DNA of 40,396 nt from Jimgerdemannia flammicorona (GCA_003990765.1 RBNJ01000123.1:1-40396); one strand, 5' to 3'; shown: positions 2,681-32,803, counted from the stretch's first letter. Numbers and translations are program-made. Notes: generated by a model from the sequence alone, not told the origin.

Positions 2681-2703
2681 TGTTATATGTCAGGGCCCAT
2701 CCT

Positions 2704-8780: not shown

Positions 8781-8822
<42 letters not shown>

Positions 8823-9180: not shown

Positions 9181-9285
9181 ATATGTGTGTTTGTATGTTT
9201 GTATGTACATGTGTATGCGTGTGTGTATATTGTGTATATGAGTATATATATTATATTGTAGATGTATTCAGCATATGAGTCATGT

Positions 9286-9545
9286 AGAGGATTTGGATTG
9301 GAGGATTTGGTTGAAGGATTCAGATGAGGATTCAGATTGAAGGATTCAAATTAGAGGATTCGGATTGAGTGATTCAGATTGAGTGATTCAGTTTAGAGTA
9401 GTTCAGATGGGTAATTCAGATGGGGTGATTCAGATGGGGCAATTCAGATTAATCTGAGTTGATTTGGATGGCTTCGGATTTGAGATTCGGATCAAACCAT
9501 TATATAATGAATTGAATCCAGATTTGATTCGAATTGACTCATTCA
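9286..9545. repeat. Subterminal repeats (GATTCRGATT type), probable 5' end of hAT-A
   Basis: More than 10 copies of gattcagat/gattcggat upstream of the hAT-A coding region. Confidence 0.7.
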
Positions 9546-10527
9546 GCTGGTATTTAGAAGAAGTTCACAAAGGAGCATAAGGAAAATAGAGATATCTGAA
9601 TCAAATATAACCACTATAAGATATCATATAAGGCTATTGGTGGCTCAATAATAAATTTGTGAGCACATTTTAACAAATTTTATAAGAGTTGTCAAATAGG
9701 AGCAATAGAGTTATTTTTTTTAAAAAGTATGATTTTTATATAACTTGTCTGCTTTTTTTTATTTTCTTATTATTAATTCATTACTACTTGATAATTCTCT
9801 AAATAGTCAAGATTCTCTGTAAAGTTATTTCAAGATAAACTTATTCACTAGATTATCTATGATAGCTGGCCTTTTACAGTTGTTTGAGAATTTAGAGCTG
9901 AAAGATCTTTTTTGCCTTCTGAAACTAAACATTATTATTCCTTCTACTAGAACTATATAAAGTGAAATTAGACTGACCTTTCAATGAAAATATGTTGCTA
10001 TCAAAATTATACTATAGATAAGATTTAATATTTTAGTGTTGAATATGAATTCAAATATTTCAAAGTTGAATAGCTTTGAATTTATCTTATTTTGATTTAT
10101 TTATTTGAAAATAGAATGTATCTGATCAAATATCCTTCACTATTGATACATAGATATCACCCAATATATATATATTTCTTTGGAATTAATACATACTGGA
10201 TTTGTCAAAATTGGTAACTCAACTGTATATTGATTAATTTTGTCAAGCTGTTAGGATCTCATTTAGGTGAAAATCTTTCTAGTATCTTTGTAAACTGTGT
10301 TCAAGATTTTCGCATACAGACAAAGATATATAGAGAACAAGTCTTTCAAAAAGATTGGGACTTCTTTTGCTTGAACCATTCGGAGAGAGCTAAGCCACAC
10401 AGACATCTTTCAGCGAAAGACAACACATTTTCAAGTTTTATTTCGAACATACTGGTGTACATTGTGTGGCGGGAGTCTACCTACAAGGCACAACAAGTTT
10501 CAAGGAAAACCGTCAAGTTTTGGCAAT

Positions 10528-12341
10528 ATGGCTAGTTAAGATTCTTCTAGCTCTGAGTGTCTGGAGAGGAGGAGGCCTGGTCTGAGCATTCCCAAGAGTT
10601 TTGCGGCTGCTGCAGGGGCTGGAGTGGATGCAGGAGGGGCTGGGGGACAGGGGAGGACTGGTGGGATCAAGACCTGGCAAATGGTGGTAGGGAATAGGGG
10701 GCTGCCACTAGGCCCATGGGGGTGAGACAGGGGGGGCATAGTGTTGACAGGGGGAGGGGTTAGATGACAAGTCAGATGATGGGTCAGGTGGCTGGCAGGG
10801 GACAGGGGTCTGGTGGTGTGATGAGGGGGACTGGTTCTTCTATGGCTGGGCAGGTGGCTGGGGAGAGGACTGCTGGTGGCACAGCTGTACCTGGAGGGAC
10901 AACCACGGGTGTGTCAGGGGCTAAGGGAAAGGTGACTCTGGCAGCTGGGACTGGCGAGCTGATAGTGAGGCCTTTCTTCCATAAATCAGTGTTGATGTGG
11001 GCGATCTTGGTGAACTTTCTGGGATTGGCAATGTCAGTGAGGGAGGTTCTGAGGATGGTGGGGGAGGAAGTGGCTGGGGCAGAGTCTCTGAAGTTCATCC
11101 CTTTGGCAGAGGTGGTGGAGATTGGCTTTGTGGAGGAGGATGCAATGGTGAAGACATTGGAGAAAGAGATGACCATTAAGGGTGTTAAGATTGGAATGGC
11201 GAGGTGTCTGAGGTGGAATCCGCATGTGGTTTGGCTGGTGGTGGAAGGATTGCCAACCCTGGGCAGACAGGAGACCAAGGAGATGGTGGTTGAGGCACTG
11301 GGTGGATATGGTGAGATGGTGGACTTCGGGTTCATATTCTGGGAGGGTACCAAGTTGAGGAATGGCAACTGCGAGGTGATGCTGCATCTGGAAGGCAAAG
11401 AGGTGATGGGGCTGGGCCGCGATTGGTCTGAAGGGATCTGGATTGGAGGGCAAGAGTGCAAGGTCTGGAGGAGAAAGGGAGCAGAACAGGAGGAGGAAGA
11501 GTTGGCAATTGCTCTGGAGGAGTGGGAGGCTGCCAAGGAACTACGGAAGAGGAAGTGGGAGGAGTATGTCAAGGATTGGGTCTGGATTCAAGTGGATGGC
11601 AAGCGGAAGAGGTGGAGGAAAGGGAATTAGGAGCGTCTGCAGGCAGCCCTCCAAGGGGCGGCAGTGGAAGAGGAGGCGAGAGCAGAGACTGCCAAGAATC
11701 AGATGGAAAGAGTGGAGGCAGCAGAGGTTTCCCTCTCCCAGCTGGGTGGTGTGGAGGACTCAGCACATGCGCTGGTGAGAGGAAAGTGGGCAGATAAGGA
11801 GGAGGTTGGTGAGGGAAGCTTTGAGGTGGATGACGAAGTGGTGCCGGAGACTCAGGTGGAGGACACCCATATGGTCGGGGCGGCGAATGTCCATTGGGAG
11901 TGCCCAGAAGCGAGTGAAGTAATTCATTTGGAGAAAGTTGTAGAGGAGGATGAGCTGGTGGATGTGGCTTCTGATGTGTCGGCTGATAGAGAGCAACTAC
12001 AAGAACTGAGCAGAACCCCCAGGCCCTCGACCCCTGGGCCCCTGGTGATGACAGCGGAGAGCTGGTACCAGGCAGTGCTTGAGGAGCTGGTGGAGGAAGA
12101 CATCAAGGAAGTGGACATATTTCATGGATCTCAGGAGACATGGGAAGGATTTCTCAATGTAGCAATGCAAGGGCCTAAGCTGGTGACGGTGATGGTGGCT
12201 GCCCTTCTGGATGATGAAGGATATGATGTGGATGAGAGCAGAATGGCCGACATCAGAAAGGTGGCAACTGAAAGAGTGGACCTTTTCTGCAGCAGTGCAA
12301 ATGGTGACCATATCTGGAGGGCAATTTGCGAGGACCAGTGA
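10528..12341 (+). pseudogene. LINE-B ORF1
   Basis: ATG at 10528; SFAAAAG; RCLRWNPHVVWLVVEGLP..YGEMVDFGF..WEGTKLRNGN aligns with LINE-A ORF1; several stops. Confidence 0.87.
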
Positions 12342-15300
12342 GAGATTGTCCGTGGAAGAGCTGAGAAGGTGGTGGTGGTTCCAGCTGAGCTTTAAACAAA
12401 TTCCTTTATGATGAAGAACAATCTATGTATTTTGTCGATCAATGTCAATGGATTGCAGGACAGTGTTAAACGATGGTGGCTGTTCAGATGGCTCAAAGTC
12501 AGGAGGTATAATGTGGTGTTTCTTCAGGATATTTGGGCTTATGGCGAGTCAGATTATGAGATATGGAGTAAAGAATGGTATGGTGGAGCTGGCTGGAATA
12601 AGCAGGTGGGCATTTTGGTTGGTGTGGGCAAAGGCAAGTTGGTGGAGGTTGAGATCTATGGCAACAGACTGATTTGGGGAAGGATTACAGGAGGGGCAGG
12701 TGACGGGTTGATGGTTGGCTCAGTTTACCTCCCTGCAGTTGGCAGAGAGTGAAAGCAATGGGTCAAAAGATGGCAGGCATGGGATGGGCAGGAGGAGGTT
12801 GCTTTGGACATTCTGGGGGGGGACTTCAATATAGTGTATGATCGAACATTAGATAGGTCTGATGGTGGAGCAGGAGTTGCAGTTTCCTCTGGACTATCGC
12901 AATGGCTTCAGGTAGAGCACGACATAGGCTTGGTAGATGGTGTTCATCAACATCAGGGAGACAAGCTAGGACCTTTCACTCAGTGGCACCCAGTTGGAAC
13001 AGTATTGGTTGAGACATGAATTGATTGGGTGCTAGTGGCGGAGTGCTGGGGCCATGTACTGGATACTGCTGAGGTGCGCTGGTGTCCATGGTCTGATCAT
13101 TGGGGTGTGGAGGTTTGTGGTAGATTTCAAGCAGCGGGCAGTGGTGGAGGGTGCTGGTGCCTCAATGTGGCCCTACTCAAGAGGAAGACAGAGAGAGATA
13201 ATTTTGTGGCAGTGGTGAGACAGGAAGTTGGGCGATGGCGCAATGAAGGACAGTTGATAGCAGAATGGTAGAGTAAATTCAAACATCTGGCTGGGGCTTA
13301 CTGGCGGGATGTTGGAGAAGTGGCTGAGAAGGAACAGAAGGACAAGGAGAGAAGGGTAGAGAAGGGGCTGTGATGGTGGTTGAAGCTTTTGGAGGTGGGG
13401 GACCTGTCTGGAGAGGTGCGCCGCTGATTAGCATTAGAGGTGGCAGAGCTACAGGTGGATTTAAGGGTGTCTGAGACCAGGGTGGTAGATGGCCTGCTGG
13501 CCAGGTTGCGGTCCAGGTGGCTAGAGGAAGGAGAGAGGCCAACAAGATATCTGTCTGGAGTTTTGAAGGCTAGGAGGGTACAACACAGCTGGGCCTCAGT
13601 TTTGTGAGAAGATGGAGTGGAGGTCTCGGGGATTGTGGACATGTTAGGGGAGGTGTCTGGTCAATGGCAAGCTCTTTGGCAGGATGGTGGGGAGCATGCT
13701 GAGGATACAGGATTTGGAGAGGATGACAACAATATAGTGACCAATTGGCCAGTAACTGCGATACCTGGGATAGGAGAGGTGGTCATGGGAGAGGTGTCTC
13801 TAGATGAAGTATTGGAAGCACTGAGGAAGACACAGACTGGTTCATCTCTGGGGGAGGATGGGCTGCCCTGGGAATTCTGGAAGGAGTTTAAGTCAGAGTT
13901 TGGTGACTGGTTGGTGGAGATGGCCAATGCAGTTCTGAAGGAGGGCAGCTGGATTGGAAATGGTTCCTTGGGGCTAGTCTCTCTTCTATACAAGGAAAAG
14001 GGTGATTGACAGATGTGGCGTAACTGGCAACCTATCATGCTGCTGAATGTAGATAGAAAGCTAATTTCGAAGATTCTGGCAGAGAGGATGCAGCAGTATA
14101 TTGGCATACTAGTTGGAGAAGAGCAGCGAGGCTTTGTCAAGGAGAGGTAGATTAGAGATAGTACTGCTTGGGTGCAGAATGTCTTAGAGGGCTGTAGGAG
14201 GCAGCAGGTAGATGGCGAGATAGTCTTTCTGGATCAAGAGAAGGCCTATGACAGAGTGTGGTGGAGTTATTTGGAGGCAGTTCTGAGGAGGGTAGGGTTT
14301 GGTGTAATAGAGGCAGGGTGACTGATGGGCCTGGTAAGGGGATGCCGAGCAGCGGTAATGATGAATGGATGGTGTAGACTGGAGTTTGCCTTGGGGTGAG
14401 GGGTACCACAAGGGGATCCCTTCTCTCCTCTTCTTTATGTACTTTCTCTGGAGTCTCTGCTGGTGTGGCTGAAGGGGTAGCTTTCTGGTCAGTGGATGGG
14501 AGATGTGGTCTGGCAGTTGAGTGCCTTTGCAGATGACATGGTGGTAGGGTTGGGTAGCCAGGAGGATGCCAAAGTCTTACAAGAAGGGGTCAGACAGTAT
14601 GAGAGGCTGGCAGGAGCAAAGTTGAACTGGGGCAAGTGCGAGACTATGGAACTTGGTGCTGGCCTGGGGGGATATGGACAATTTGGACAATTGGTAGCTA
14701 CAGGGAGTGCTGTTCATTATTTGGGTATCTGGTTTTCGGTGTATGGGATGGTCCTACTAAGGGAGTGGTGGGGTGGATTGGTTCAGAAGCTGGAAGGTGT
14801 GCTGACAGGATGGTCAGGAAGGAGCTTCTCATTGGTTGGCAGGATTGTGGTCTTGAATGTGTATTGGCTGCCCAAGCTGTAGTATCTGGGTTATCATCTA
14901 GATTTTCCAGGGTGGGTGGTGCAGCAGCTGAAGAAGATTGTAGAAGGGTGGTTATGGCGGGGGAGGCACCCACAGATTGGGTGGGAGACTTTGGTGATGA
15001 GGATTTCTGATGGAGGCCTGGGGCTGGTGGATTTCAAGCAGCAACTGAAGGTACTTCAGGGCTGGTGGGGGTGCCAACTGAAGGAACTAGGTGAGGAAGG
15101 TTGGGGCAGGCTAGCTATGGACAATTGGGAGGTCAGGTTCTGCCCTCATGGTGAGGTTTGGAAGGATATGTGGGGTTTGCTATAGGTTGGAAATGTAGGT
15201 AGACTGCGGTTTAAGGGGTTCTGGTGGGGCATTGTAGAGGCCTGGCTAGCCATGGGGTTGACAGGCCCAGAGATAGAGATGGACGAGAACCCTGAGCAGT

Positions 15301-15819
15301 GATGGTGGTGGCTGGGAGACCTTCACGTAGGTGGCCACAGTCTGAAGGAGTACTCTCTGATTGAGACAATGGAGTGGATCAGGTCTGGCCCTCTGGAGAG
15401 ATGGCTGCCTGGTTGGCAGAGAGCTGGTATTGGTGAAGGCTGGGAGTGGGGTCGAATTTGGAATTGGGGAGACTCCGTACACAAGATGGTACCACCCAAG
15501 TATTGGGTGGTTTGGTGGCAGTTCCTGAGACATAATGTGATGCTGAGCTACTGGATGGGCTGGATGGAGATTGATGGCTGTCGGGACTATGAGTGGTGTA
15601 ATGAGGTGGATGGCAGGGTTGTTCAGATACCTGAACATATCCTGGGGGCTTGCCCAGGCATGGATGGGTTTTGGCAGAGTTTGGAGGGGTACTGGGACCT
15701 GGCGGGGCATAGGGCAGAGGATCCAATCAGTCTGGTGGTTAAGTGCCGACTGGTAGGGGAGATTGGTGACATACATATGGGAGAGCCTTGGTCGAGTATT
15801 GGGGGTAGTGCTCCGCAAA

Positions 15820-16195
15820 CCCGACCTGATTAACCCGAAACTCAACCTGTAAAACAGCCAACCCAGAATTATATGTTACCCATCTTTAACCCGACCCGGA
15901 ATAATACGTCACCCGTCTTTAACCCAACCCGAAATAATATGTCACCCGTCTTTAACCTGACCCGGAATTATACATCACCCATCTTTAACCCGACCTGGAA
16001 ACGTACATCACCCGTCTTTAACCCGACCTGGAATTATATGTAACCCGTCTTTAACCCAAACTGAGAAATATATGTGACCCGACCTGAGAAATATATGTGA
16101 CCCGACCCAAGAAATATATGTGATCTGACCCAAGAAATATACGTGACCTGACCCTGACCTGTATTTAACCCAACACAGACCTGTCTTTAATCTGC
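15820..16195. repeat. hAT-C left subterminal array: about 6 x 33 bp, then 4 x 23 bp, ACCCG core
   Basis: tttaacccgacccggaataatacgtcacccgtc units, then gtgacccgacctgagaaatatat units. Confidence 0.9.
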
Positions 16196-16355
16196 CTTTA
16201 AGCTACAAGGTACCAAAAAAAATATATTGCATATCTAAGATATATATTTAGAATAAACAAACAGAAACATAATTAGGAATCAGAAATCAAAATGAAATCG
16301 GAAATAAATAGGAAGTAAATCAGGAAAATAAAGAACTTACCGGTGTGAACAGATC

Positions 16356-17698
16356 TTACTCTTCATTGCTATAAACCAACTGATCCTCCTCTTCATCGCT
16401 ATAAACCAACTGATCCTCCTTCTTCTCATATTCCGAACCATCTTCCTCCATATATTCTGAACCGCTTTCCTCTATATCCTCCTCCTCCATATCCTCCTCT
16501 GGGCCGACCTCCTCCACACCAACCTCCATTTCGTCCTCCGCGCCAACCTCCCTGTATTCCTCCGCACCGACCTCCCTGTATTCCTCCGCACTGACCTCCC
16601 TGTATTCCTCCATGCTGACCTCCCCATGTTCCTCTGCGCCGACCTCCCCGTGTTCCTCCATGCCAACCTCCCCATGTTCCTCTGCACCAACCTCCCCCAT
16701 ACCGACCTCCCCATGTTCCTCTGCGCTGACCTCCCCTGCGCTGACCTCCCCCACGCTGACCTCCCTCATGCTGACCTCCCCCATGCTGACCTCTCTACCG
16801 ACCTCTCCACCAGCACCAACTCCTCCACTGGCACCGACCTCTCCCACCTCTCCATCTCCTCCACCACCACTCCCCTCAACAAAATGCACAAGCCTGCCAT
16901 CCATCAGTTGTATATAAAGCGTTTTGTCATTCTTCACCGGTACTCGTTCAAATATGGCCAGCAGTTTTTTGTGTTCATCTATGATGACAATTCCATCTGG
17001 ACAACCTCGCTTGTTCCATGCTTTGGCATTTACCTTGAAGCCAGTGTGGTATGACAAATGTTCCATGATTTTTGTACGGTTTTCTATCACTCTTATGACT
17101 TCTTGCCTCAGTTGGTCATCATATACTTTCTTAATGCATTTGTTGGCCACAGCGAAAGCATGCCTAATGTCCGATTTGTAAGGCCTTTTCTCTGTGAGGT
17201 TTGGGGCATCCGGGAAATTGATTTGGCAATGCTTCCAGGTGGTGTTTGGGCAAACTTGATGGCAAAAATGACAATTGTAGCAAGATTTGTGCTCCGGCCC
17301 AGGCTTAGAAGCTGGAGGATATATATATTTCAAATGTTATTAGGAAAAAAATTCGGACATTGATTTAAAAAGAAAAAAAAAAAAAAAAACTAACTTTTTC
17401 AAGCTGTGTTATTGGGATTTGGTGGGGGACCTTGTGCTTGCAGACCAGTGGCAAGCTGGCGGTCAAGCTGGAGAGTGGGGAGCTGAGGGTCAGCAAGCTG
17501 GGAGTCAGCGAGCTTGGCAACCTGGGTGTCGGCAAGCTCGGCAGGCTGGGTGTCGGCAAGCTCGGCAGGCTGGGTGTCGGCAAGCTGGGCATTTTTAGGG
17601 CACTGAGCTTTGGGACAGCGAGCTGAAGCGTGTCGAGCTTGGGGGGAGCCAAGTAAATACTTATTGGCCAGGCAGTCATATCCATGTTTTCTCAACAT
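16356..17698 (-). CDS. hAT-C passenger gene: Q/A-rich repeats, His/Cys motif, unknown globular segment and acidic repeat tail (one CGA>TGA-type stop in exon 1)
   Basis: Intron 17312..17394 (GTTAGT...CTAAT...CCAG) joins ORF 17399..17698 to ORF 16356..17333 in matching phase 1. Confidence 0.68.
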
Positions 17699-17719
17699 AG
17701 CGGTGAATTAAGTGAGGTG

Positions 17720-17985
17720 AAGCGAAGGACGAGGCAAAGCGAAGGATGAGGCGAAGTGAAGGATGAGGCGAAGTGAAGGACAAGGTGAAGTGAAGGATGA
17801 GGTGAAGTGAAGGACGAGGTGAAAAGAATGAGAGGCGAAAGTAAGCTTTCGATATCTTAAACGTTCAAAAGCTATAATATCTTTCAGAAGCTCTTTCGGA
17901 ATCTCTCTGAAATCTCTTTCAGAAGCTCTTTCTGAATCTCTTCGAAATCTCTTTTGGAATCTCTTTGAAATCTCTTTCAAAACCC
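17720..17985. repeat. Minisatellites: 17-bp gaaggatgaggcgaagt x6 and about 12-bp gaaatctcttt units
   Basis: Directly visible upstream of the passenger gene. Confidence 0.8.
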
Positions 17986-18086
17986 ATTTCTAAATTGCAT
18001 GTTGTTTGCAATCTGAGGAATGAGGGTGAGGGAGGTGGAGGAATATGTGAGGGTTGTGCAAGAGAAGTGGAACACAAGAGGAGTGG

Positions 18087-18718
18087 AATGCAAGAGGAGT
18101 GGAACGCAGTGAGGAAAGCTCCGGATTGTAAGCGTAAGCGTAAGTGTAAGTGCAAGCGCAAGCTTTGCTCCGCTCAGCTGATAGATGATATCACGTGATA
18201 TCAGCTTATTATCAGCTTGTCAGACTGAGCGGAGCAAAGCTTATGCTTACACTTACGCTTATGCTTACACTTACGCTTATGCTTATGCTTGCAATCTGGA
18301 GCTTTCCTCACTGTGTTCCACTTCTCTCTGCATGATTCAGCGGGTTCTGCGTAAGCCCCGATTGAGCAAGGTTTGTAACGATGTTTGAGCAAGGTTTGTA
18401 GTGTGTTTGAGCGAGATTTGCAGCAAGGTTTGAGCGAGATTTGCAAGCCTTGCACTTGCAAGCTCAGCCGATAGCTAATATCACGTGATATCAGCTTATA
18501 TACATGTCATATCAGCTTGTGACTGAGCCCAGGCTTGCAAGCACAAGGCTTGCAAAGCCTGGCTTATACAAATCTCGCTTTAATCTTACATGCAAATCTC
18601 GCTTGCAAATCTTGCTTGCAAATCTTACTCGAACCTCACTGCAAATCTCACTCAAATGCACCACAAACCTCACTCAAACGTCATTGCAAACCTTGCTCAA
18701 TGCAGAACATGCTGAATC
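18087..18718. repeat. Two adjacent long inverted repeats, each centred on a TGATATCACGTGATATCA-type palindrome
   Basis: Centres at 18186-18203 (perfect 18-mer) and 18473-18496 (one mismatch). Arms 18087-18178 / 18226-18334 and 18334-18467 / 18523-18718. Confidence 0.9.
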
Positions 18719-19066
18719 TCCAAAGTATGTTTGCTGTTTACTGTTTGCTGTTTGCAGTTGCATGATGGGTACCAGTTCACCACCCATGTGTATTTATTCA
18801 TCCATCCTCTGTCCACAATCGATCATTGGCTATCGCATGCCACCTCGCTGCTCTCCCTCTCGCTGCCCCCCACAGTTCCTAGCTTTTCCCACCACTTGCC
18901 ACTTGCCACCTCTCCACAACTCCCTGCCCCCTAGTTCACTGCCCCCCCAGCTCGTTTCCCAGTTCGCCACTCCCTAGCTTGCCACTTCCTAGCCACTTCC
19001 TAGCCACTTTCCAGCTCTCGGCCTCCCACTCAAGCTCCCAGTCTCTGCCATCATCAAATATTCGAA

Positions 19067-21344
19067 ATGTCTAAAGATCAAGAAGTATATTTAGGAGAAA
19101 TCTCGGAACTATCGGATGATATATCGGAGGATATATCGGAGGATATATCAGATATCTCCACCAGTTTGTTATCACCAACAAGCATGAGAATAAAAATAAA
19201 AACAAAACCTAGTGATAGCTGGGTATAGAATCATGCCACAAAGGTAGTTTTATACATTATGCTAATAGTTGAATTCATAGGGGTGATTGGTCTCAGTCAT
19301 AAGAGTGGGTGGTTGGTTGTAAGTGGTTGAGGTTCTAATATAGTCTCATATCTCTCTATTCAAATAGAATTTACAAAGTAAGCTCATCAGTTGCAACCAT
19401 TGCACGACTTGGAGCTATATATTGAAGGACGGCAATATCAACAATCTTAAACAATATCTCTGGAAGTATTACAATACCATGCTCTTACCTCTCCAGCATG
19501 CTGAGAATCCTTGCTGGTCTAAGAAAGATGATATTGTGAGTATGGATAGAATGGAATTTGGAAAGTACTTAGGAGATTATTAGAAAAATAATTAATCAAA
19601 TTTTATTATTACAAATAGGAACACACTAGCAAGACTTTAAGTGATGAAAATTTCTGTCGGTTAATTGCCAACTTCATTGTCACTAGATATCAGCCATTCT
19701 CCACTGTCAAAAATGCTGGCTTTAAGTATCTCCTTCATATATTACGTCCTGATCTGGCCCTTCCATTGGCTGATACGATTTCGTGAGTTATTCGAAAGGA
19801 ATTCAAACTATTGTGGACTCAAGTGAAAGTAAGGCTAGCAGGGCTCAAGTCAAAGGTGTCACTTACACTTGATTGTTGGACATCGGACGTTAACATCAAG
19901 GCTTTCTTTGGAATAACAGTCCATTGGATTGACAGTGATTGGAAGATACATGACATTATCTTAGACTTTGTGAATATCAGCGAAATAACACACACAGGTG
20001 CCAATCTTGTGAAAAGTCTGGAGCTGATAATAGATGATTTATTGCCTAGTGACAATCAAATCATTGCTGTTGTGTGTGACAATGCCAGTAACAACAATAC
20101 TCTGTTTGAGAATCTCCATCATCTGCTTGCTCATGTATGCTGTTTCGGGCATATGTTAAATCTCGTCATTTATGATACTCTTGGTTCTCTTAGTGAGCCC
20201 ATTGGAAAGCTACAGGAGTTGATAAAGAAGATCAAAAATTCAGCGCAACGATAAGCACAACTGGTGAAGGTCTGTGAATCCTCCGGAATTCCCATTTTGA
20301 AGCCTCTCTTAGATGTTATGACAAGATGGAGTTCTACACATGAAATGTTAGTTAGATTTTGGAATATAATTTGGAAGTATTTTGGTACTAAATAAATTGA
20401 TATTACATCCAAATAGGGCTTGGATATATTGTGTGCTATGGATAAGCAAATGAGCAATATATCTGAAGATGCATGGCAACAATTTGAATTGATTTGCCAA
20501 TTTCTCAAGCCTTTTGCCAAAGTGACAACTGTGATGTCAGCTTCGAAGTATCCTACAATAGCAGCTGTTATCCCACTATTTAATCAGCTATGTGATCACC
20601 TTGAAGATGTCATCGATACATATCAAACTGGTGAACATTTTAATCAGGTATATATATGATTTTGAAAGTAATTTTATTTGTGAATTTAGGAACTAATTTA
20701 GTAAGTAATTGGGAAGTAATATGTATATATTTTTATTTTTTATAGATAATGCTTACCGCTGCTAAGAATGCACATATGAAACTTCTAAAGTATTACTGCA
20801 AGACAATACCATTATACAGCATAGCTTCGGCCTTAGATCCATGTATCAACATGCATTATTTCCATCGTGAGCAATGGAAAAAATCCTTAATTGATAAATG
20901 GAAGAATCAGATGGAACATATCTGGGAAAAGGAGTATAAGCCTATTAATGCTATCATTATACCCTCAATATCTTGTGATGCCAATGATTTTATCAACTCA
21001 ATATATGAGAAGAAACAGCATGTCGATGTGGATGATGAGCTTGAATGGTGGGTGTTGTTTTTATGTTTTTTGATTGGCTTGGTTAATTTTCACTCATATT
21101 TCTCTGTTTCAGTTATTTGTCAGAGAATCCAGCTGATCCTCGTATAGATATACTGGATTGGTGGCGGCGAAATCAGTCGGTATATCCTAATCTTTCACAA
21201 ATGGCTCGCAATTATCTTGCTATTTCGGCAACATCTGTTCCATCTGAACATATTTTTTCTATTGCTGGTGAGCTAGTGACTGAACGTCGAAACAGCTTGT
21301 GTATAAATACAATTCGTGCATGCATGTGTTTAGATTCTTGGTAG
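19067..21344 (+). pseudogene. hAT-C transposase (BED finger, DDE core, dimerization domain), multi-exon, few stops
   Basis: ATG at 19067; SWV(W)NH, intron, CNHC; QPFSTV; SLTLDCWTS; CDNASNN; CFGH; DVMTRWSSTHEM; YPNLSQMARNYLAISATSVPSEHIFS; CLDSW stop. Confidence 0.95.
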
Positions 21345-21414
21345 TTTTCAGATATTTTTCACTTTCAATTACTCTGAATATTATCCAAATATTTTCCGAA
21401 TCATTTTTTCAGAG

Positions 21415-21765
21415 CAGAGTTCAGAGGGTCGGGTTCAGGGTCGGATTCAGGGGTCGGGTTCAGGGTTGGGTTCAGGGGTCGGGTTCAGGTTTGGGTTAAG
21501 GGTAAATAATGGGTCGGGTGACATACATTTCCAGGTCGGATTAAAGATGGGTAATGTATCTTTCCGGGTTGGGTTAAAGATGAGTGACATACAATTCTGG
21601 GTTGGGTTAAAGATGGGTGACATATAATTCTGGGTCAGATTAAAGATGGGTGATGTATTATTCTAGGTCGGGTTAAAGACGGGTGACATATAATTCTGGG
21701 TCAGGTTAAAGACGGGTGACGTATAATTCCGGGTCAGGTTAAATATGTACACGGGTCGGCTCAGG
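21415..21765. repeat. hAT-C right subterminal array (gggtcgggttcag units, then about 7 x 33 bp, inverted relative to the left array)
   Basis: gggtgacatataattctgggtcaggttaaagac units are the reverse complement of the left units. Confidence 0.9.
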
Positions 21766-22104
21766 TTGCGATGCACTAATTGGGGGTCTGGGTCTTGATG
21801 GATGGGGATTGGAGAAATGGTGGAGCGGTGGAGGTGGCTTCTCCAGGAGGTGGTTTAGGAGTGGTGGTATCAGGGGAAGCAACTTCGACCTAGGGCCCTA
21901 AAGAAGGTACAGGACATTGTCCAGCAGAGCCGAGGGTACCTAGTGTTAGATGATCGTGGAGTAAGATAGAGAGCAGGAGTTAGCTGAAGTATGCTACTTA
22001 TGTATATTATATGGTATTAGTAGTATATTGGAGTTCATGGTTATTGTATTAGATAGTTCATAATAAAGGAGTCCATGTGACTATAAAAAAAAAAAAAAAA
22101 AAAA

Positions 22105-22360
22105 GTCTTTCAAAAAGATCATATTTTAAAAAGGTTGGATTTTCAAAAAAGGTCAGATTTTTAAAAAAGGTCAGATTTTAGAAAAAGGTCAGGTTTTCAA
22201 AAAAGATCAGGTTTTCAAAAAAGGTCAGATTTTTGAAAAAGGTCAGGTTTTTGAAAAAGGTCAAGTTTTTAAAAAAGGTTGGGTTTTTGAAAAAGATTGA
22301 TAGTTAGGTTTTCAAAAAAGGTCAGGTTTTTGAAAAAGATTAAGTTTTCAAAAAAGATCA
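22105..22360. repeat. 18-bp minisatellite (ggtcaggttttcaaaaaa), about 14 copies, in a hAT-B intron
   Basis: ggtc recurs at 22151, 22169, 22187 and onward; transposase reading resumes right after it. Confidence 0.88.
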
Positions 22361-24177
22361 TCTTATATTCAAATTATGGACAATACATCTAACAATACTA
22401 TGTTTTTTCAAACAATTGGGATAGAGTTTGATCATACTGACCTCAACTATCAGCCAATATATCATATATGCTGCCTGGCTTATATCATTAATTTGGCTAT
22501 TCAGGACTTTTAAGTCTATTTAAAAGCTAATAATGAAGTGAGTAAAGATGGTTCTGGAGAAATAATTTCAAAGCTCTAATTAATTATTATCAAGATCCAG
22601 TCATCACTATAATGATTAGAGAGATTTACTGTATAATATAAAGCTTTTGGAGTCTGCAATCCAAAAGAACTTATTTTGGACATTAAAACTCAATAGAATT
22701 CAACACATTTGATAGTTAAATGGGTCTTAGAATTATCAGAGATAAGCTGATTATATTATATTTAATTTTTTAATTTTTTAGGTTTTTCTTCAAATAATCT
22801 AATAAATTAATTTATTAATAGCCATTAATCTCAATAGTTATAGCTGATAAAGATTTGCAAAAATATGCTATAGAAGACTATACTTGGCAGATGTTAAAAG
22901 ACATTTTTGGTATGCTAAAGTAATTTAAACAAGTAACAGATCTTGTAGCTCAGTATAAATATCCAATGATTTATTCTGCTATTCCTATTTACAACTTTCT
23001 AATAGATATGTTGGAGGATAATAATGAAGAAATTTGAAAACATACAGAAGAGCTGAATATCATTTACCTGGTACTAACTGCAGCTATTACCAAGTTAAAG
23101 ACATATTATTCAATGATAGATACTCTAATTTATTATATTAGTACTGATAAGTAAATATTTTAATCAGAGATAATATAAATCTATTTCAAAATTTGCTTGT
23201 TGGCTACTACTAATATATTTTAAATTTTTTTTATTTTATTTTTTAATAAAAACCAGTACTTGATCCCAAGCTTAAGCTAGAATATTATTTATTGCATAAT
23301 TGAAAAGATATTTGAATTGAAGAGACCAAAGACAAACTTCATACAGTTTATAATAAAAACTATACTCCTCCATCTAGATCAATTAATCAAACAAGTTCTG
23401 AAGATCATGAAGTAAGAGATGATGTCAATGCTATACTATATAAATATATATTCAACAAAAGACAAAAACTGATAACAAATCCTAAGTAGGAGGTAGATAC
23501 TTATTTGAAAAGTGAAACTGTTAAATTTCAAGCAGGAGTTGATATATTATCTTAGTGACAAGTAAATTGGGAATTTATATTTAAATAAGATCAATTCAAA
23601 ATATTATTTGAGTTTCTCTAATTGATTTAATTGATTGGAAATATTAGGACCATAGAGGAGATTTCCCAAATCTAGCAAAAATGGCATATAACTACTTAGC
23701 TATCCCAGCAACAAGTGCTCTAATTGAGAGAGTTTTTTCAAGTAATAAAGATCTTATAGTAGCTAAAAGAAGTACTTTAGACTCTGAAATAATTCATAAA
23801 TATATGTGTTTAAAGGCATAGCAATCAGTCTAGTATTTCAATAACAAATAGTTAATCCCAAATCTTGAAATATAGTTAAATTTCGAAATATCAAATAAAT
23901 ATAGCACTCAGGTATTATATTGTATAAGTATGACCCAGAACTTATAGATACACTATATCTGAATATAATTTCTGAATACATATCTGATTATTATATTCAA
24001 ATATAATTTCTGTCATTTCTAGCCTCAATAAGATAAACAAGATATCATTGTGTCTACTCAGGAGTACTAGAGATAGATAATAAGCAGTATAAATAGCATA
24101 ATATATTAAATTTCAAATATATTCAAAGCTTAAAAATATATATTATACATACTTGATTACTATATCCAAAATACTCA

Positions 24178-24737
24178 TGCTTGCAAGCTCACCAGCCTAT
24201 AAGTCTGCAAGCAATAAGTATAAGCTAAGAGCTTTGAATATTGCAGTCTATAAGTCTGCAATCCCACAAGCAACAAGTATAGGCTGAGAGCTTTTAATAT
24301 TGCAATAATCACAAGTCTACAAGTCTGTAATCCTACAAGCAAAAGTATAAGCTGAGAGCTTCAAATATTACAATAAGTGTAAGCCTGTAATCTCACAAGC
24401 AACAAGTATAAGCTAAGAGCTTCAAAATTGCAGCAAGTGCATGCTGCAATCCTGCAAGCAATAAGTATAAGCTGAAAGCTTTGAATATTACAATAAGTGT
24501 AAGTCCACAATCCTGTAAGCAACAAGTATAAGCCAAGAGCTTCAAATATTACAATAAGTACAAGCCTATAATCTCATGAGCAACAAGCATAAGCTGAGAG
24601 CTTCAAATATTACAGTGAGTATATACTGTAATTCTGTAAGTAATAAGCATAAGCCAAGAGCTTTAAATATTACAATAAGCACAAGCCTACAATCTTGTAA
24701 GCAATAAGCATAAGCTGAGAGCTTCAAATGTTGCACA
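24178..24737. repeat. Tandem array, about 9 x 60 bp, directly upstream of the hAT-B passenger ORF
   Basis: gcaacaagtataagctgagagcttcaaatatt recurs at about 24211, 24270, 24339, 24399, 24458, 24519, 24580, 24640 and 24701. Confidence 0.9.
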
Positions 24738-24791
24738 GGTAAAATATATATAAATAAGCTGGCTTTAATAATAAAAAATAAAAAACAAAAA

Positions 24792-25493
24792 ATGACCTTA
24801 TCTTATAAAAAACTTCAATTCTATATTGATTATCTTTCTGGAGCCTTTGAGGACATGAACCATACTATTAACAAGATTGTCATCTGGTTGGATGATGAGG
24901 AACCTAAGACTGATGATAAATGTAAGAAGAAGAAGAAGATTGAAGAAGTAATCAAACAATTTATCTCAAGGACAGCTCCTGAAGCCACCTCTCAGGCTAT
25001 CCATAAAACCTCTATTCTTGAGGCCTCTGAAGTCTCTACTCCTGAGGCCTCTGAAGCTGCTGCTACTACTACCCAAGCTACTATCCAAGCCTAAGCTGCT
25101 GCCTAAGTACAAGCTACTATCCTAGCCCAAGCCACCACTGCCCAAGCCCAAGCTGCTATCCAAACCTAAGCTGTCACCTAAGTTCAAGCTACTACCCAAG
25201 CCTAAGCCACCACCCTAGCCCAAGCTGCCACCCAAACCCAAGCTATCATCTAAGCCCAAGTCACTACCCAAGCCCAAGCTGCCACTACCATACCTCTAAA
25301 AACTAAAGTTTGATTTCATACAAGCTGCAATAATTATAGAAGATATGGAAAACCATATTGTACCCTTGTCAAAATCTGTCAACAACTCAATCCATTGATC
25401 TTTAATCTTCCACTAAGAAAGAGGTTATATAATAATACTCACCAGACAACTACTGCTATGGCCAGGTATGGCTAAGATCAGGACCAGGAGTGA
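24792..25493 (+). pseudogene. hAT-B passenger gene: charged N-terminus with poly-Lys, AQAAT repeats, His/Cys motif
   Basis: One frame from ATG 24792. Internal stops are TAA/TGA at positions where CAA/CGA fit the repeat. Ends in HTSCNNYRRYGKPYCTLVKICQQLNPLIFNLPLRKRLY. Confidence 0.7.
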
Positions 25494-25629
25494 GAATTTC
25501 GAAAATATACATTGGTTATGTGTGGATTTTAATTAGGTGTAAATTTCAGTTATGTATAAATTTTAATTATATATTTATGTATGATGTGCCTTTCAAATAA
25601 ATAACTGATGTAATTAGTAAGCTACTGAG

Positions 25630-25749
25630 AATCTTGAATTTATATTTAATTTGATTTGACTAATTCAAATTGAACTCTCAATTCAATTTGATCTGAATCA
25701 ACCCCAATTCAATTCAATTTGAATTGATTTGATTTATTTGAGAGCACTA
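25630..25749. repeat. hAT right end: attcaa/aattga subterminal repeats and terminal gcacta
   Basis: Ends ...tttgagagcacta, matching the hAT-C terminal hexamer. Confidence 0.7.
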
Positions 25750-25787
25750 GATATGATATATATATATATATAAGCTAATATTATAAC

Positions 25788-28700
25788 ATAGAGACTAGAA
25801 GAACAGTAGCTGAGAGAGAAGATATGACTACTGATAGTAGTGTAACTGGAGATTTGGAAAAAAAAAAACCAGATGTGACAGCTGATGGTAGAGCTGAGTA
25901 GATGGGTTGAAAAAGTAAAGAAGACCTGATAGATAGTATGATAGATCTGACTATAGCTCTGTTACTTAAGAAATCAATCTCAGAATTCACTATTATATTG
26001 TACTTTTAAGGATAAGCAGTAACTACAAAGATAGTGCTGGGGCTAATCTCAAAGCAGATAGCTGAAGTAGCTTCAGTAAAGTTCTTGTGGGGGCTGGAGG
26101 ATATTGAGGTGAGATTTGAGAAGACTAGGCTAGTAGAGGAGACTTTGAAGACTGAATTGGCATTTGGAAAGATAGTGGTACTAATGGTATACTACTTGAG
26201 GTAGAACCCCAGAGTGGTTTAGCTCTTGGTAAAAAGAGTTCCTATAGTGATAGCTGTTGAGACTAGATGGAGGGTAGAGGAGGTGATAGTAGAGTATAGT
26301 AATATAGTAGATATTGGATCTTAGATCTGAGAGGGAACATCATTTAGGACCAGAGATATAGATGTCTAGCTCAGACTTATAGAGAGAGAGACTACTGGGA
26401 AGGCTCAGAACTAGCCTATAGTAATGATGTGAGAAGTATTTATATGTAAGATAATAAGGGTAAAGAGGAGTATAAAGGAGGAGAAGGATCTACTAAAGAT
26501 TCTAGAAGAGCTCAGTAAGGCAGTAGAGTATCAGACAGTAGTATGGAGGGCTTACAAAACATCATCATACTTAGAGATAGTAAATAAAATGAGGTAGTGA
26601 GTAGGTAAGATATTGTGGGAGAAAACTCAGAAAAGAAAGCAGCAGAAGAAGCTATTGATAAGTTTGAAGGATAGGTCTACTGCTGGGGCTGGTGGGGCCT
26701 CAGGTGGATCAATGGTGAGTACTTGGACTGGAGATAGAGTTGGGGGGATATCAGAGAGTATGGCAGAGAGTAAGGAGACTAGAAATAAATAGCTTTATAA
26801 TGAAGGTATACTTGAAGTCTGAGAGGAGAAAGAGAGGCTGAAGGCAAGGATTAGTGCTCTGGACAAAGAGAGTGGAGTAAATATGAAGATGAGAGATATG
26901 TAGAGAGTCCAGTTTGAGATTCCTGATATAGCAAAGAAAGGATAGATGATTGGTGTTATAGAGAATGAGCTATAGAATATTTCTGAGGAGAAGTGAGATA
27001 AGTTGGCAAATACAGATACTAATATCACAATACAGGAGAGAGGGGAGGCTATTAACCCCTAGTATAAAAAGTATTAGAAACTTTATGTGAATGATTAAGA
27101 AGATAGATGGCTTGACTGCTGAGAAGCTGGAGGAAGTAGACTTACAGGTGGTCAGTAAGAAATAATGAGAGTGAGTATTGATAGAAAATGGACTAGTAGA
27201 GAAACTGAAGGCCAAGGTACTGACTGTCTTGCTGGAAGAGGAAGAATATAAGATTGGTGAGGCTAAAGAGGCTGAATTGGCAGTAATTGTAGAGAAGAGA
27301 GTTTTTTTCTAGTTTAAGCAATGGTATGACCTATAATACTGGTAGAAGGCTTGCAAGAAATATAAAGAGGATATAGAGGAGAAGAATGATGAGATAATCA
27401 CTAAGATTCTGGTTAGGCTAAAGATAAGAGAGGCTGAGTTGACAAAGACTGTAGCAGAATATGGTCTGAACTTAGCTTGGGAGGAGATAAGTATAGAATT
27501 GTGAGAGGTTGGGTCTACTCTATAATATTATTCCTTAAAAATAGTATAATTAATATTTTCTCACTAAATATGAATGACTTGAAGGACTCTAGAAGATATA
27601 AGAACATTTTCTCTGAATGGAGACTGATCTTTTTCTTTTGCAGAATATATACTGAGAGGAGGACTTAAATAGACAAAAGTAGACTAAGAAATAGAGCAGT
27701 ATAGTAGTTTAGAGAAATAAGGTTGGAATCTTAGTATAATGTGGCAAAGGTAATCTTGGTAAAGTTGGGGACTGGGGTGACTGATTGGTCTGGGATAAAT
27801 GGCATTAGTCAGAGTGAGAGTCTGTTGTTATTAGCTCATATTATTGGCCAGCAGTATGGAGTAACCATCTTAAGTAGTTGGATGAGCTTCTTAATTGTAG
27901 TGTACTGGCTGAGATAAGAGTTAATGTACTTGAGAGTAACTTCAATATGGTCCAGGATATAGTGTTGGACAAAACTGATCAGAGAAGAGATACTAGAGAC
28001 TACAGTGGAGGTCTGGCTATTTGGAAAGACATAGAGCAATCTGGCTTCTTGATAGATACAGGCAGAGTGATGTAGGATAACTATTGGATCTATATATATT
28101 AGAGGATTGAATTTGAAATGCAGATTGATTAGATACTGATGGCTGACTGCTGAGGATTGAGTGTTTGGAAGAATTTAGAGATAGTGTAGTGCCTATAATC
28201 AGATCATTGAAGATTATTGAGATATAGTCAGTTTTGAGAGAGTGAGGATGATTCTGGATATTAGTGACTCAATTCCTTCTTGCTGGCTGAGAAGGGGTTG
28301 TGAGATACTCAAGCAGAGACCATTGGGTTAAAGATTGCTTATTAGAACCATAAGGGACTCCAATTGAATTGAATTGAGAGTTATTCAAATTGAATTAAAT
28401 TGGAGTTTTTTTAATTCAAATTAAGTTTAAATCAAATCAAATTGGACCTTTGATTCAATTTAAATTGAATCAAATTTGATCTTGATTCAATTTGTTGGAA
28501 GCACTAGCTCCTAGTAGGGGTTCATTGAGTGAGATTGAAGAAAGTAGCTAGGATATATTAGAGAGAGGCTGGTGGGTTTGCTGAAAAGGAGTAGTGGAGG
28601 AGGGTGAAATAGATATCTGATCAGTTGGCCCAGTTGCTGATAGAATGGGCTGACCTGTTGAGCCAGGAGATAGTAGATGATTAGAGACTAGTATAAGTTT

Positions 28701-31420
28701 AGTTAGAAGTAGTAGAGTTATAGAGAGTGTTAAGAGGAGAGAAGGAGACTTATATAAAGAGGATGGTGGCTAGGTTGAGATAGTAGGGGCTCAAGGAAGA
28801 CAAGCAGCTTTCTAAGTATCTGTTGTGATTTCTTTGAGTAAAGAGAGTGAGACAGTAGTAGGACAGAGTTTTGGATACTAAGGATATACTAGTATATAGT
28901 ACTCAGTAGATCTTGAGCTCTCTGAAGAGGAGATAAAGGAGTCTGTAGAGCAAGAAGAAAGGGGGTACTGACACTGAGGCTATAGAGTATGCTCTGGAGA
29001 ATTAGTGATCCCCTCAAGTAGATAGCCTTAGAGACCTAGTCCTGCTGATCAAGGAGGAGGAGATCTTATAGGTTCTGGCTACCACAAAATTGAACATAAT
29101 ATTAGATAAGGATGGTCTGCTCTAGGACTTTTAGAAGAAGATGGTGGGTGTTGGGGGAAATAGTCATGTTTTGTAATTATGTTCTTACAACCAGAGAGTG
29201 GGTCAGAGAGCAGAAACTTGATCTAATAATATTACTATTCAAGGGTAAAGAGAGGAGAGAGGATTGGAAGAACTGGTAGCTAATTATGCTTCTGGATATA
29301 AACAGGAAGCTGATCATAAAGGAGATTATTGCATAGCTGTAGAGGGTGGTCCAATAGATACTAGGTGAGAAGCAGCAAGACTTTTTTGAGAGCTGGCTTA
29401 TTAGAGATAGAACAGCCTGAGTGTACAGTATAATTGAGGGAATAAGAGCTAGTGAGTTTGATGGAAGGTTGGTCTTCCTAAATCAGAAGAAGACCTATGA
29501 TTATATTTAGCCAGTTTGGCTAGAAAAGATACTAGATAGGATTGAGATTTCTTAGCAATTCTAGGTTTCAATAATTAGTCTACTGGAGGGTAGTCAGATA
29601 GCTCTTATATATATGTATACAATAGTTATCATGATATCACATTTCTATTATGGAGGGGTGTTCTTCAGAAGGACCTATTGTCCTCTATTCTATATACTCT
29701 ATCACTAGAGCTATTGATAGATAATATTCACTGTAAGATGGCTGAGCTCTCAGTCTTGTGTGAAAGATTGAGGCCTTTGCAGATAACATAGTGGTTGATT
29801 TTGACTCAGTTGCTGATATTGAAGTACTGAGAGAGATGGTAGAATAGTATAAGGAGTATTCTAAGATAAAGCTCAACTAGTATAAGTATGAGATAATAAC
29901 ATTGGAATATAGACTAGTAGGTAGAGATATTATTGGAAAAATTGTCTCTGCAGAAGAAGCTGTAAGGTATCTGAGCATCTTCTTTATCAGTATATAGATC
30001 TGTCTTACTTAGAGTTTGGTAGAAGAGTAAGGTAGCTGATTAGGAGACAGTTCTTTAGAGCTATAGGAGATATTATATCTCTCTGGTTAGGCAGGTATTG
30101 ATACTGAATGTTTATTGATTACCAAAGTTATAATATCTGACTTATTACTTAGACTTTCTAGTCTGAGTGATGAAGCAATAATTGAAGTTGGCTAAGGACT
30201 AGATCTGGGCTGAAAACAGTATCAGATAGAATAGGAGACTTTGGTGACACTGGTGAATAGAGAAGGTCTTTATCTGGTAGACTTCCCTAAGAGGCTATAT
30301 TGTCTGAGGGCTTAGTGGTTGAAGTGGGCTGTTGAACTATAAGGTAGTGAGTGGGTACTACTAATGCAGAGAGTCTGAGAGAGAAGATTTTTCCCCAAAG
30401 GCTCTTCAGGTAATTTATTATCATTGGTTGAACTGAGTGACAGTAAGTGCTTATAGTATAAGGACTTCTGGTAGGAGGTGGCTGATGGTGCATATTATAT
30501 ATATTGGGCTATACCAGTGGAGTACTGAGAGAGAGATAGATCGGAGTCTAGTGATATAGAGATGAGATAGATTACTATTGGGTAGCTTTTCACTAGTAGA
30601 CTTTAACATTGATACTAGAATAGAGTACCAAAGGGGAATAGGTCAGAATTTATAGCCCATGGGCTAGCAGATGACTGGGATTGATAAGAAGTGGGACTGA
30701 GTAGATATATAGTTCTAGAGTACTGAAGTGTAGTAGTAGCTCTCTCTGAAGTTCTGAGTGATATAATAATATTTGTTAAAGAAGAATATCATGTTGAACT
30801 TTCAGTCAGATCACTTGATAGATAGCAGGTACTTCAATTGTAAAGAGTATTATAATATAGAGCAGGAGGAGAGTTTTGTATAGATACTAAAATATTGACT
30901 AGAAGAGTATAAGATACTTGGTAATTTCTGAATAGTAATTGAAAAGTGTCTGAGAGTAGTGAGGAGAAAGAATGGTGAGAGAGATAGGTGGGATGATTGA
31001 GAGAGCAATTGGTGGGTTATATTGATAATGAGTAGCTTACTATTAGATGAGTCTTGGTAGTATGAGTAGGGCTGGCTAGACACTAGTTATATATATATAT
31101 TTGAGAAGAAGAGATGGGTGAGTTTGGAGAAGAATTTGGTGAAGTGGGAAGGATTGTTGGGGCATATTATATCTGACTAATGGGTAGAGTGGGGGCTCCA
31201 GAGTAGTTGTTACTACTGTCTAGTAAAGGAGATATATGAGTAGAGTGAGAGAAGAGTAGTAATGATTAATAATCTAATAATCTTTAATTATAAAGAAATA
31301 GAGAATGATCCCCTGAGAGAGATTGGTTAGAGGTGGGGTTACTATATTATATTATAAATTAGAAGAGTTCAAATAAAGATCAGAGTCTAAGTAACTATAA
31401 AAAAAAAAAAAAAAAAAAAA
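25788..31420 (+). mobile_element. LINE-C: 5'-truncated, heavily mutated relative of LINE-A
   Basis: Colinear with LINE-A from mid-ORF1 through ORF2; AATAAA at about 31372 and poly(A) to about 31422; TSD aagctaatatta(t/c)a(a/g)c at 25772-25787 and 31421-31436. Confidence 0.92.
28361..28506. mobile_element. One-ended hAT/MITE remnant inserted in LINE-C
   Basis: Interrupts the colinear ORF2 at the (H)EGL|PV position; aattga/attcaa repeats; ends ...ggaagcacta; no left TIR. Confidence 0.72.
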
Positions 31421-31727
31421 AAGCTAATATTACAGCTACTTATATGTAATATCAGCTATTAGTTGAGTGGACTGAGTTAGCTGAGTAGACTTTTGGCTTA
31501 TACTTATAAATCTCACTTATACTTATATATATATATACTTATATATACTTAAAATCTAGAGCTTTTCTTACTATATTCTACTTCTCTTGCACAACTTTTA
31601 TATATTCCTTTATATCCCTTACTCTCATTTCTCAGATTGTAAATAATATACAATTTATAGAGATTTTGAAAGAAGTTTCAAAAGAGATTTCAAAGAGATT
31701 CTGAAAGAGCTTCTGAAAGAGCTTCTT

Positions 31728-32780: not shown

Positions 32781-32803
32781 TATAACCACTTACTATTATC
32801 AAG

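Follow-up and report, generated by a model that had tools for sequence, protein, structure and literature searches.

A stretch of 40,396 nucleotides from Jimgerdemannia flammicorona (GCA_003990765.1, RBNJ01000123.1:1-40396), referred to below as the window, is a nest of eukaryotic, fungal-type transposons, which includes, according to Pfam domains, long interspersed nuclear elements (LINEs), a long terminal repeat (LTR) element and three hAT elements, named here hAT-A, hAT-B and hAT-C. The hAT elements are textbook one-gene cut-and-paste transposons, and their transposases normally bind the subterminal repeats of the element itself. As had been predicted from the nucleotide sequence, hAT-B and hAT-C each contain a second reading frame besides the transposase, since the Dimer_Tnp_hAT domain is found in both elements and both additional frames lie inside the element limits (Table 1). 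The products of the two additional genes appear to share a Cys-containing module of about 45 residues and nothing else. Of this observation, the part on hAT-C is real and the part on hAT-B probable.

The two 38-residue peptides from which the shared motif had been proposed are letter-for-letter translations of the module intervals given in Table 1. An exhaustive phmmer search of 1.84 billion protein representatives with the hAT-C protein (E<=0.001) returned three matches, only one of which, P0003, covers the motif (E 6e-6). P0003 is an unnamed public protein of 103 residues located on a 1078-bp contig, and consists of KPGPEAKSCHNCTFRHSKCPSIKYYCQKANPQFPNLQKIRQY followed by a basic helix and an acidic tail. 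In a pairwise comparison it matches hAT-C with an E-value of 3e-15 and 27/56 identical residues, and these two results confirm that the Cys module of hAT-C is a conserved protein module; judged by its sequence, the hAT-C motif is a real domain. The two other matches, P0004 and P0005, are spurious: they are internally repetitive and match residues 127-158 and 105-147, outside the module.

The module reads C-x2-C-x6-C-x6/7-C-Q-x3-P-x3-N-L-x2/3-[KI]-R-x-Y, and the three-way alignment of hAT-C, P0003 and hAT-B contains 13 invariant columns (S, C, N, C, C, Q, P, N, L, R, Y, A, A), three of which are Cys. The pattern of the original prediction is thus slightly refined, as P0003 has Ala in place of its first His and Ile in place of the Lys in its KR pair. 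The shared module is probably a real but tiny, undescribed protein domain, and its role for the transposon is a guess.

Further relatives were sought in several ways. A word-indexed protein search with the 169-residue non-repeat part of hAT-C gave 26 candidates and none at E<=0.01. With a profile of the three sequences, the same kind of search matched P0003 itself alone among 81 candidates of near lengths and none of the 332 candidates of longer lengths. An annotated host homologue was not found in protein sets of 5.8e9 and 1.84e9 sequences, and of 64 pattern matches obtained from bacterial and archaeal genomes none could be confirmed. The absence from annotated proteomes would fit a repeat-borne gene better than a conserved host gene.

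The second exon of the hAT-C gene encodes, in this order, the Cys module, a region of about 110 residues without relatives, in which two helices and five strands were predicted with low confidence, a Gly stretch and an acidic tail. Its non-repeat part is open over 169 codons, and the 326-residue reading frame around it contains no Pfam family above the cut-off of that family. The acidic tail is built of 24-bp (8-residue) repeats at 16510-16697 (period 24), because of which several frames are open there on both strands. The 8-residue period of the tail is strict (EEHGEVGA-type), and the tail gave a sub-threshold match to the T4 gp5 C-terminal beta-helix repeat of Pfam (7.6e-05, 23.3 bits against a cut-off of 30.9), which is probably a repeat artefact.

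The first exon is less certain. It contains a Gln/Ala/Asp/Leu-rich repeat with 24-bp units at 17493-17591, and owing to the repeats two further frames are open in it. The intron suggested in the original prediction has good fungal signals and joins both hAT-C frames in phase, but an in-frame TGA (17399-17401) lies two codons before the donor, so that the intron agrees with the reading frame only if this TGA is a mutated codon. The Gln/Ala linker before the motif is likewise present upstream, as claimed, in a frame (17399-17707) that ends in the same TGA and is open from its ATG at 17698 down to 17402. Either the TGA is a mutated codon or another splice is in use. The former is credible in view of the two stop codons that interrupt the transposase of the same copy (Table 1); for the latter, a GTCCCC donor (intron 17312-17430) would also join the frames in phase, and an acceptor at 17304 fits the other open frame.

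The second frame of hAT-B lies downstream of the transposase on the same strand. Its repeat consists of Gln/Ala/Thr-coding 18-bp units, and the remnant of the Cys module stands in frame with this ATG-started, Gln/Ala-rich frame. In-frame stop codons comprise six TAA in the repeat, all at CAA places of a CAA-GCN repeat, as well as TGA 25311, TAA 25473 and TGA 25491. The window contains a single copy of each of the two hAT families. Both of its copies of the second gene are dead, and the stop codons would have arisen by C>T/G>A changes.

The module is C-terminal in the hAT-B product, and in hAT-C it stands close to the N-terminal end of exon 2. The two elements differ in gene order and orientation, as had been claimed, and the remaining parts of the two products proved unrelated (observed scores reached by 160/500, 273/500 and 84/500 shuffles). 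The differing position and orientation, together with the unrelated remainder, suggest that the module has been shuffled between transposons and does not derive from one ancestral two-gene element; judged from these sequences, module exchange fits better than an old two-gene lineage. As a separate observation, stretches resembling SUMO-interaction motifs, hydrophobic and then acidic, occur in P0003 (residues 83-103, VIVLDDD and VIEVDDD) and in the window at 16965-16985 on the minus strand (IVIIDEH) and at 24880-24910 on the plus strand (IVIWLDDEE); this similarity is not significant (84/500 shuffles).

Of the two carriers, hAT-C shows the short terminal inverted repeats and the 8-bp target duplication of the hAT superfamily, whereas hAT-B shows the right end alone. 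The duplication of hAT-C is perfect (ATTGGGGG, at 15798-15805 and 21779-21786), the inverted subterminal 33-bp arrays (15861-16063 and 21532-21734, 203 nt) are 81% complementary, and the Dimer_Tnp_hAT domain (PF05699) of the transposase is found at 21087-21344 with an E-value of 6.7e-22, above the cut-off. In hAT-B the same domain lies at 23648-23821 (6e-13, also above the cut-off), the left part matches the hAT-C transposase in tblastx at 10176-10250, and the right end is GCACTA at 25744-25749. The exact left terminus and the target duplication of hAT-B were looked for and could not be identified, because mutations and the inserted LINE have disrupted the element. When the right end is reversed, the left subterminal region (9374-9587) can be aligned with it at a score reached by 0/300 shuffles, and the terminus at 25749 is therefore that of hAT-B, which removes the concern that it might come from a different element. 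The array at 22108-22360, with 18-bp units at 22124-22360, might be mistaken for a subterminal repeat but is internal, since hAT-B comprises both parts listed in Table 1. The target duplications make the order of events readable: the LINE at 10356-22104 split hAT-B, and hAT-C then entered that LINE. The transposases of hAT-B and hAT-C are 27-46% identical in tblastx blocks, and the two elements thus belong to different hAT families.

In both elements the second gene has its own start and long repeat arrays upstream, with CACGTG palindromes in hAT-C and a 61-bp array in hAT-B. The palindromes of hAT-C have arms at 18093-18163/18257-18327 (71 nt) and 18361-18448/18614-18701 (88 nt), which are 84-86% complementary, and the centre of each is ATATCACGTGATATCAGCTTAT with a CACGTG core. 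This core resembles the E-box of a bidirectional promoter, or may represent a binding or hairpin site.

Table 1. Positions of the hAT elements, their second genes and neighbouring features, counted from the first nucleotide of the window.
Feature	Position	Strand	Remarks
hAT-C, complete element	15806-21778	+	TAGTGC...GCACTA ends; inserted in LINE
hAT-C second gene, exon 2	16356-17311	minus	within 326-aa stop-to-stop open reading frame 16356-17336
Cys module of hAT-C	17178-17291	minus	C-x2-C-x6-C-x7-C-Q-x3-P-x3-N-L-x2-K-R-x-Y; His +4 after second Cys
Proposed intron of hAT-C second gene	17312-17394	minus	83 nt; GTTAGT donor, CTAAT branch-like site, CAG acceptor
Proposed exon 1 of hAT-C second gene	17395-17698	minus	ATG at 17698; in-frame TGA 17399-17401
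Arrays and two long palindromes between divergent second gene and transposase of hAT-C	17714-18701	.	
hAT-C transposase gene, several exons	19067-21344	+	broken by TAG 19226-19228 and TAA 20252-20254
hAT-B, left part	about 9260-10355	+	subterminal 14-bp GATTCAGAT-type repeats 9285-9454; 5' part of transposase
hAT-B, right part	22105-25749	+	stop-ridden rest of transposase, 61-bp array, second open reading frame, right end ...GAGAGCACTA
Tandem array directly upstream of hAT-B second open reading frame	24194-24729	.	61-bp unit, 6.8 copies within 24321-24729
hAT-B second open reading frame, single frame	24792-25493	+	ATG, ~100-aa N-terminal part, repeat, module remnant
Cys-module remnant of hAT-B	25317-25430	+	Tyr/TAT at three positions that are Cys in hAT-C
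LINE splitting hAT-B	10356-22104		15-bp target duplication GTCTTTCAAAAAGAT at 10341-10355 and 22105-22119
Second LINE, heavily mutated	about 25784-31423		12-bp repeat AAGCTAATATTA at 25772-25783 and 31422-31433; poly(A) 31400-31423
Third hAT (hAT-A)	5405-7545, perhaps to about 9250	minus	Dimer_Tnp_hAT 3.9e-09 at 5405-5659
Candidate miniature element	28187-28506		320-bp TAGTGC...GCACTA unit inside mutated LINE

The module may be a small metal-binding unit, in which four Cys residues would be followed by a Pro/Asn/Leu turn and a basic patch. The layout of the hAT-C product (module, predicted helices and a long acidic repeat tail) and that of P0003 would be those of a small nuclear metal-binding activator or adaptor encoded by the element. 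Such a protein might bind to the nucleic acid or chromatin of the element, with the arrays and palindromes just upstream of its gene as the most plausible site, and might promote the element's own expression or mobility. To this chain as a whole, an element-encoded adaptor or activator that acts on its own repeats, we would assign a probability of about 40%. Zinc binding, DNA binding and a benefit to the element are points that we infer, with DNA binding, self-activation and anti-silencing read from the layout of the products.

The spacing of the four Cys (C-x2-C-x6-C-x6/7-C) resembles that of the first four Cys of the Zn(II)2Cys6 cluster of Gal4 type, and the module with the subsequent helices and acidic tail is reminiscent of a small Gal4-like activator. 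In the Gal4 structure the first four Cys alone make a complete tetrahedral site round one of the two zinc ions. A small residue before the first Cys and a His four positions after the second presumably fit the first two thirds of the PROSITE Zn2Cys6 signature. Unlike the binuclear cluster, the module lacks Cys5 and Cys6 and could bind one metal ion at most. Separate DNA-binding or anti-silencing helpers that act on the element's own repeats are known as the Myb-like protein of PIF/Harbinger, TnpA of En/Spm and VANC of VANDAL; the concept is alike, the sequences are unrelated, and a helper role is here suggested by analogy. It is rather unlikely that the module marks a new single-zinc DNA-binding helper family, Zn2Cys6-derived or convergent, which is carried and swapped by the hAT elements of one fungal lineage, binds the arrays or palindromes and drives or shields divergent transposase transcription. 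If this were true, the helper would correspond, in hAT elements, to VANC or to the Myb-like protein of Harbinger.

The reading of the hAT-B remnant depends on the mutational background of the window, which was derived from a protein-guided codon alignment of a GC-rich LINE copy (206-3948) with an AT-rich one (26280-30130), in place of a direct blastn comparison that had aligned 155 nt only. G>A (522) and C>T (217) changes make up 739 of the 1455 substitutions, with a strong strand bias, as these counts on the coding strand show. The hypermutation affects all dinucleotide contexts at similar rates (0.29-0.46), in contrast to classical repeat-induced point mutation, which is CpA-biased. Trp became a stop codon in 39 of 61 cases in the mutated copy and Cys became Tyr in 4 of 18. 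The reversal of TAT to TGT on which the original prediction relied is, accordingly, of a type that the spectrum permits, but should not be assumed by default. The first half of the hAT-B peptide contains three Tyr, each encoded by TAT. In an ungapped alignment they fall on Cys residues of hAT-C (C-x2-C-x2-C-x3-C); MAFFT places the hAT-B peptide's own Cys on the third conserved Cys with a gap of one residue, so that only one Tyr-to-Cys reversal is required.

A number of results weigh against an element-encoded activator built round a shared metal-binding module. The module is defined by three sequences only, its second ligand is Tyr in hAT-B, and P0003 has Arg where hAT-C has an additional Cys (C-x2-C-x2-C). 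Neither Zn_clus (PF00172) nor zf-CCHC (PF00098) was matched at E<=10 by hAT-C, P0003 or hAT-B, and AlphaFold2 gave unreliable models, with a predicted local distance difference test score of 34.8 for the single sequence and 55.4 for the three-row alignment. Exon 1 of the hAT-C gene requires read-through of a TGA codon, and hAT-A has no match to the Cys module in the profile search of the window. The arrays that precede the two genes share no more k-mers than AT-rich background sequence does. As for hAT-B, the raw Smith-Waterman score of its comparison with hAT-C is reached by 686/2000 shuffles, tblastn found no cross-match between the two at E<=10, and the hAT-B site leads the schemes built without it narrowly and is never an outlier. 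Of the 41 Tyr residues in the mutated LINE copy, only 4 derive from Cys, against 10 that derive from His and 13 that were Tyr already.

Common NNAAGC-type sites in the arrays upstream of both genes were considered and rejected (20 shared frequent 7-mers against 16 in AT-rich controls, of which the best had 24). A transition-tolerant alignment of the same arrays scored 172 against a shuffle maximum of 162, for which the shuffles are a poor null.

Membership in the Zn(II)2Cys6 family was not upheld: besides the lack of a Zn_clus match, the profile search of the PDB found no Gal4-type chain at E<=10, and none of the three sequences has Cys5 or Cys6 of the binuclear cluster, the places of which are taken by N/A/L and other residues. 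The module opens with S/K-C-[YH]-N-C, like many Gag knuckles, and a His follows, but the spacing is C-x2-C-x3-H-x2-C in hAT-C and P0003, not C-x2-C-x4-H-x4-C, hAT-B has no His, and a knuckle contains nothing that corresponds to the fourth Cys or to the Q-x3-P-x3-NL part. An intact CCHC knuckle occurs in the neighbouring LTR element at 38696-38860. Neither the hAT-C protein nor P0003 had a usable feature match in the ESM Atlas, and the structural matches of P0003 there were long helices with TM<=0.51. By every test run the module is outside the Zn2Cys6 family; from its sequence it would be an undescribed small Cys4(+His) motif, the spacing of which may fairly be called "half of a Zn2Cys6 cluster".

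Among the other explanations, the one that survives best, possible although on the whole somewhat unlikely, is that the second genes are passenger DNA, that is, pieces of host or other-transposon genes captured by transduplication or recombination, whose reading frames are useless to the element and whose common module reflects the source. The different places, orientations and protein contexts of the module in the two elements would agree with this, as would the lack of a motif match in hAT-A. Internal segments do move between elements here, since 248 bp from inside hAT-C are found again at 31566-31813 in different surroundings. A published precedent exists, too: according to an excerpt of PMC12730594, hAT7 and other DNA transposons of rust fungi carry TET/JBP genes beside the transposase, the position and orientation of which vary between families, and these genes have been exchanged among transposon lineages by "frequent but passive transmission". 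The excerpt thus provides a fungal exception, TET/JBP in Puccinia hAT7, to the premise of the original prediction that hAT elements normally encode a transposase only. The present case is similar in that a fungal hAT has a second protein gene of variable position and orientation, and differs from what that excerpt describes in the 8-bp target duplication of hAT-C, which is not 7 bp. The extra gene here is not a dioxygenase, having no Pfam match (Tet_JBP was not matched by the 326-residue frame at E<=1 or by the module at E<=10), and its non-repeat part is about 170 residues long. Against a passenger origin stand the failure to find an annotated host homologue in either protein set, with P0003 as the only relative, and the state of the genes: both frames keep an ATG, an upstream array and a Gln/Ala-rich linker, which is more than a random fragment would, and hAT-C keeps a canonical intron.

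It is doubtful that the module occurs in hAT-C only and that hAT-B offers a chance match in mutated AT-rich DNA, which would leave a single hAT with an orphan gene. The raw alignment score and the minor share of Cys among the sources of Tyr given above would be expected in that case; moreover, runner-up loci are nearly equal in every scheme, and any stop codon can be explained by a transition. When all Tyr are read as Cys, the score of hAT-C against hAT-B is reached by only 7/2000 shuffles, and P0003 matches hAT-B in a single BLASTP comparison with E 0.002 without any reversal. A profile built from hAT-C and P0003, with hAT-B left out, ranked the hAT-B frame first among 927 non-self reading frames of the window, both raw (E 0.21 against 0.35 for the next) and with Tyr read as Cys in all frames (0.024 against 1.6). 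With P0003 alone as query, the hAT-B frame was second after hAT-C (0.093 against 0.13 for the next); the BLASTP match of P0003 at 0.13 (38276-38509) is a Lys/Glu-rich stretch without Cys and was discarded. In a three-segment scan of 80,428 codon positions of the window, to which the hAT-B frame contributes 235, the hAT-B site was first in the raw mode (26.5 against 26.0) and in a transition-aware mode, in which every T may have been C and every A may have been G at all positions (97 against 95). The 235-codon frame, which belongs to the one other non-transposase reading frame of a hAT, was thus the first non-self locus in four hAT-B-free schemes and second in the fifth, and these rankings support the earlier choice of the hAT-B frame as the best candidate for a second copy in the window. 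The match is in frame with the upstream coding region and the linker, its Tyr residues stand on Cys columns, and the one conserved Tyr column is retained. On these sequences, homology of the hAT-B remnant to the module is likely, with a good deal of room for doubt.

An iron-sulfur or other redox metal site in place of a zinc or DNA-binding knuckle is very improbable: hAT-C does resemble Fer4_2 (E 0.017) and Fer4 (E 0.12), and the PDB profile search returned only chains of high-potential iron-sulfur proteins (HiPIP; best 3hip_A, E 0.02, profile positions 5-40) and a Cks protein, but all the Pfam matches are below the curated cut-offs (15.5 bits against 24.5 for Fer4_2), P0003 and hAT-B have no Fer4 match, the fourth HiPIP-type Cys is absent from the next 14 residues, and the ferredoxin-like string C-x2-C-x2-C-x3-C-P is found in hAT-C alone and is not conserved, because its third Cys is the one replaced by Arg in P0003.

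The repeated segment of the hAT-C interior (18082-17840, reversed) corresponds to a C>T-mutated 248-bp copy, about 77% identical over 162 bp, that adjoins a palindrome-like sequence (31424-31560); the similarity ends at the start of the 17-bp array of hAT-C. The copy may represent a segment that was exchanged, or else the sequence upstream of hAT-A. No third copy of the second gene emerged beside it when the hAT-C gene was aligned with 31800-33600 at the DNA level with transitions tolerated: on the plus strand the score was at the shuffle level (105 against a shuffle mean of 108), and on the minus strand it exceeded the shuffle maximum (164 against 139), but the alignment consists of low-complexity AT runs. 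An apparent start-codon match in the same region was rejected, as its score is reached by 80/300 shuffles.

The third element, hAT-A, has transposase blocks (pieces within 5423-7527) that are 24-42% identical to hAT-C; a search for its boundaries within the window was without result, and a GC-rich stretch with a terminal poly(A) (8783-8821) seems to interrupt it. The heavily mutated second LINE adjoins hAT-B on the right side. Its insert at 28187-28506 resembles the right end of hAT-B in its right part (20 frequent 7-mers in common; 74-83% identity in blastn) and is, judging by this likeness, probably a miniature non-autonomous relative of hAT-B. The LINEs of the window are GC-rich and have endonuclease and reverse-transcriptase domains, while the LTR element encodes a protease, dUTPase, reverse transcriptase and RNase H; in its pol region (36659-38050, minus strand) the dUTPase domain (5.1e-23) is placed between the protease and the reverse transcriptase. 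At 31655-32110 on the minus strand, a 151-codon open frame in DNA of 26-30% GC ends with YFFYCQIGHIITKY, which reads like a CCHC Gag knuckle with three Cys changed to Tyr. The frame has no Pfam match, and "gag-like" is a reading of it only.

The interpretation is partly supported, and the case is best described as that of a DNA transposon of fungi whose passenger or accessory gene is built round a four-Cys module not described before. The evidence is thin, with a single good copy, a second one that has decayed and an anonymous protein, and for now it amounts to a lead rather than a finding. A full-text literature search, conducted mostly at the title and abstract level, found no zinc-module accessory gene in hAT elements, and the extra genes of hAT elements have so far been described mainly as TET/JBP dioxygenases of rust fungi. 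The module would be a small candidate for self-regulation of hAT elements or for their escape from silencing, and it illustrates how half of a Zn2Cys6 cluster might appear as an independent domain. If two adjacent hAT families carry another kind of passenger, this would show that fungal hAT elements exchange accessory modules more generally.

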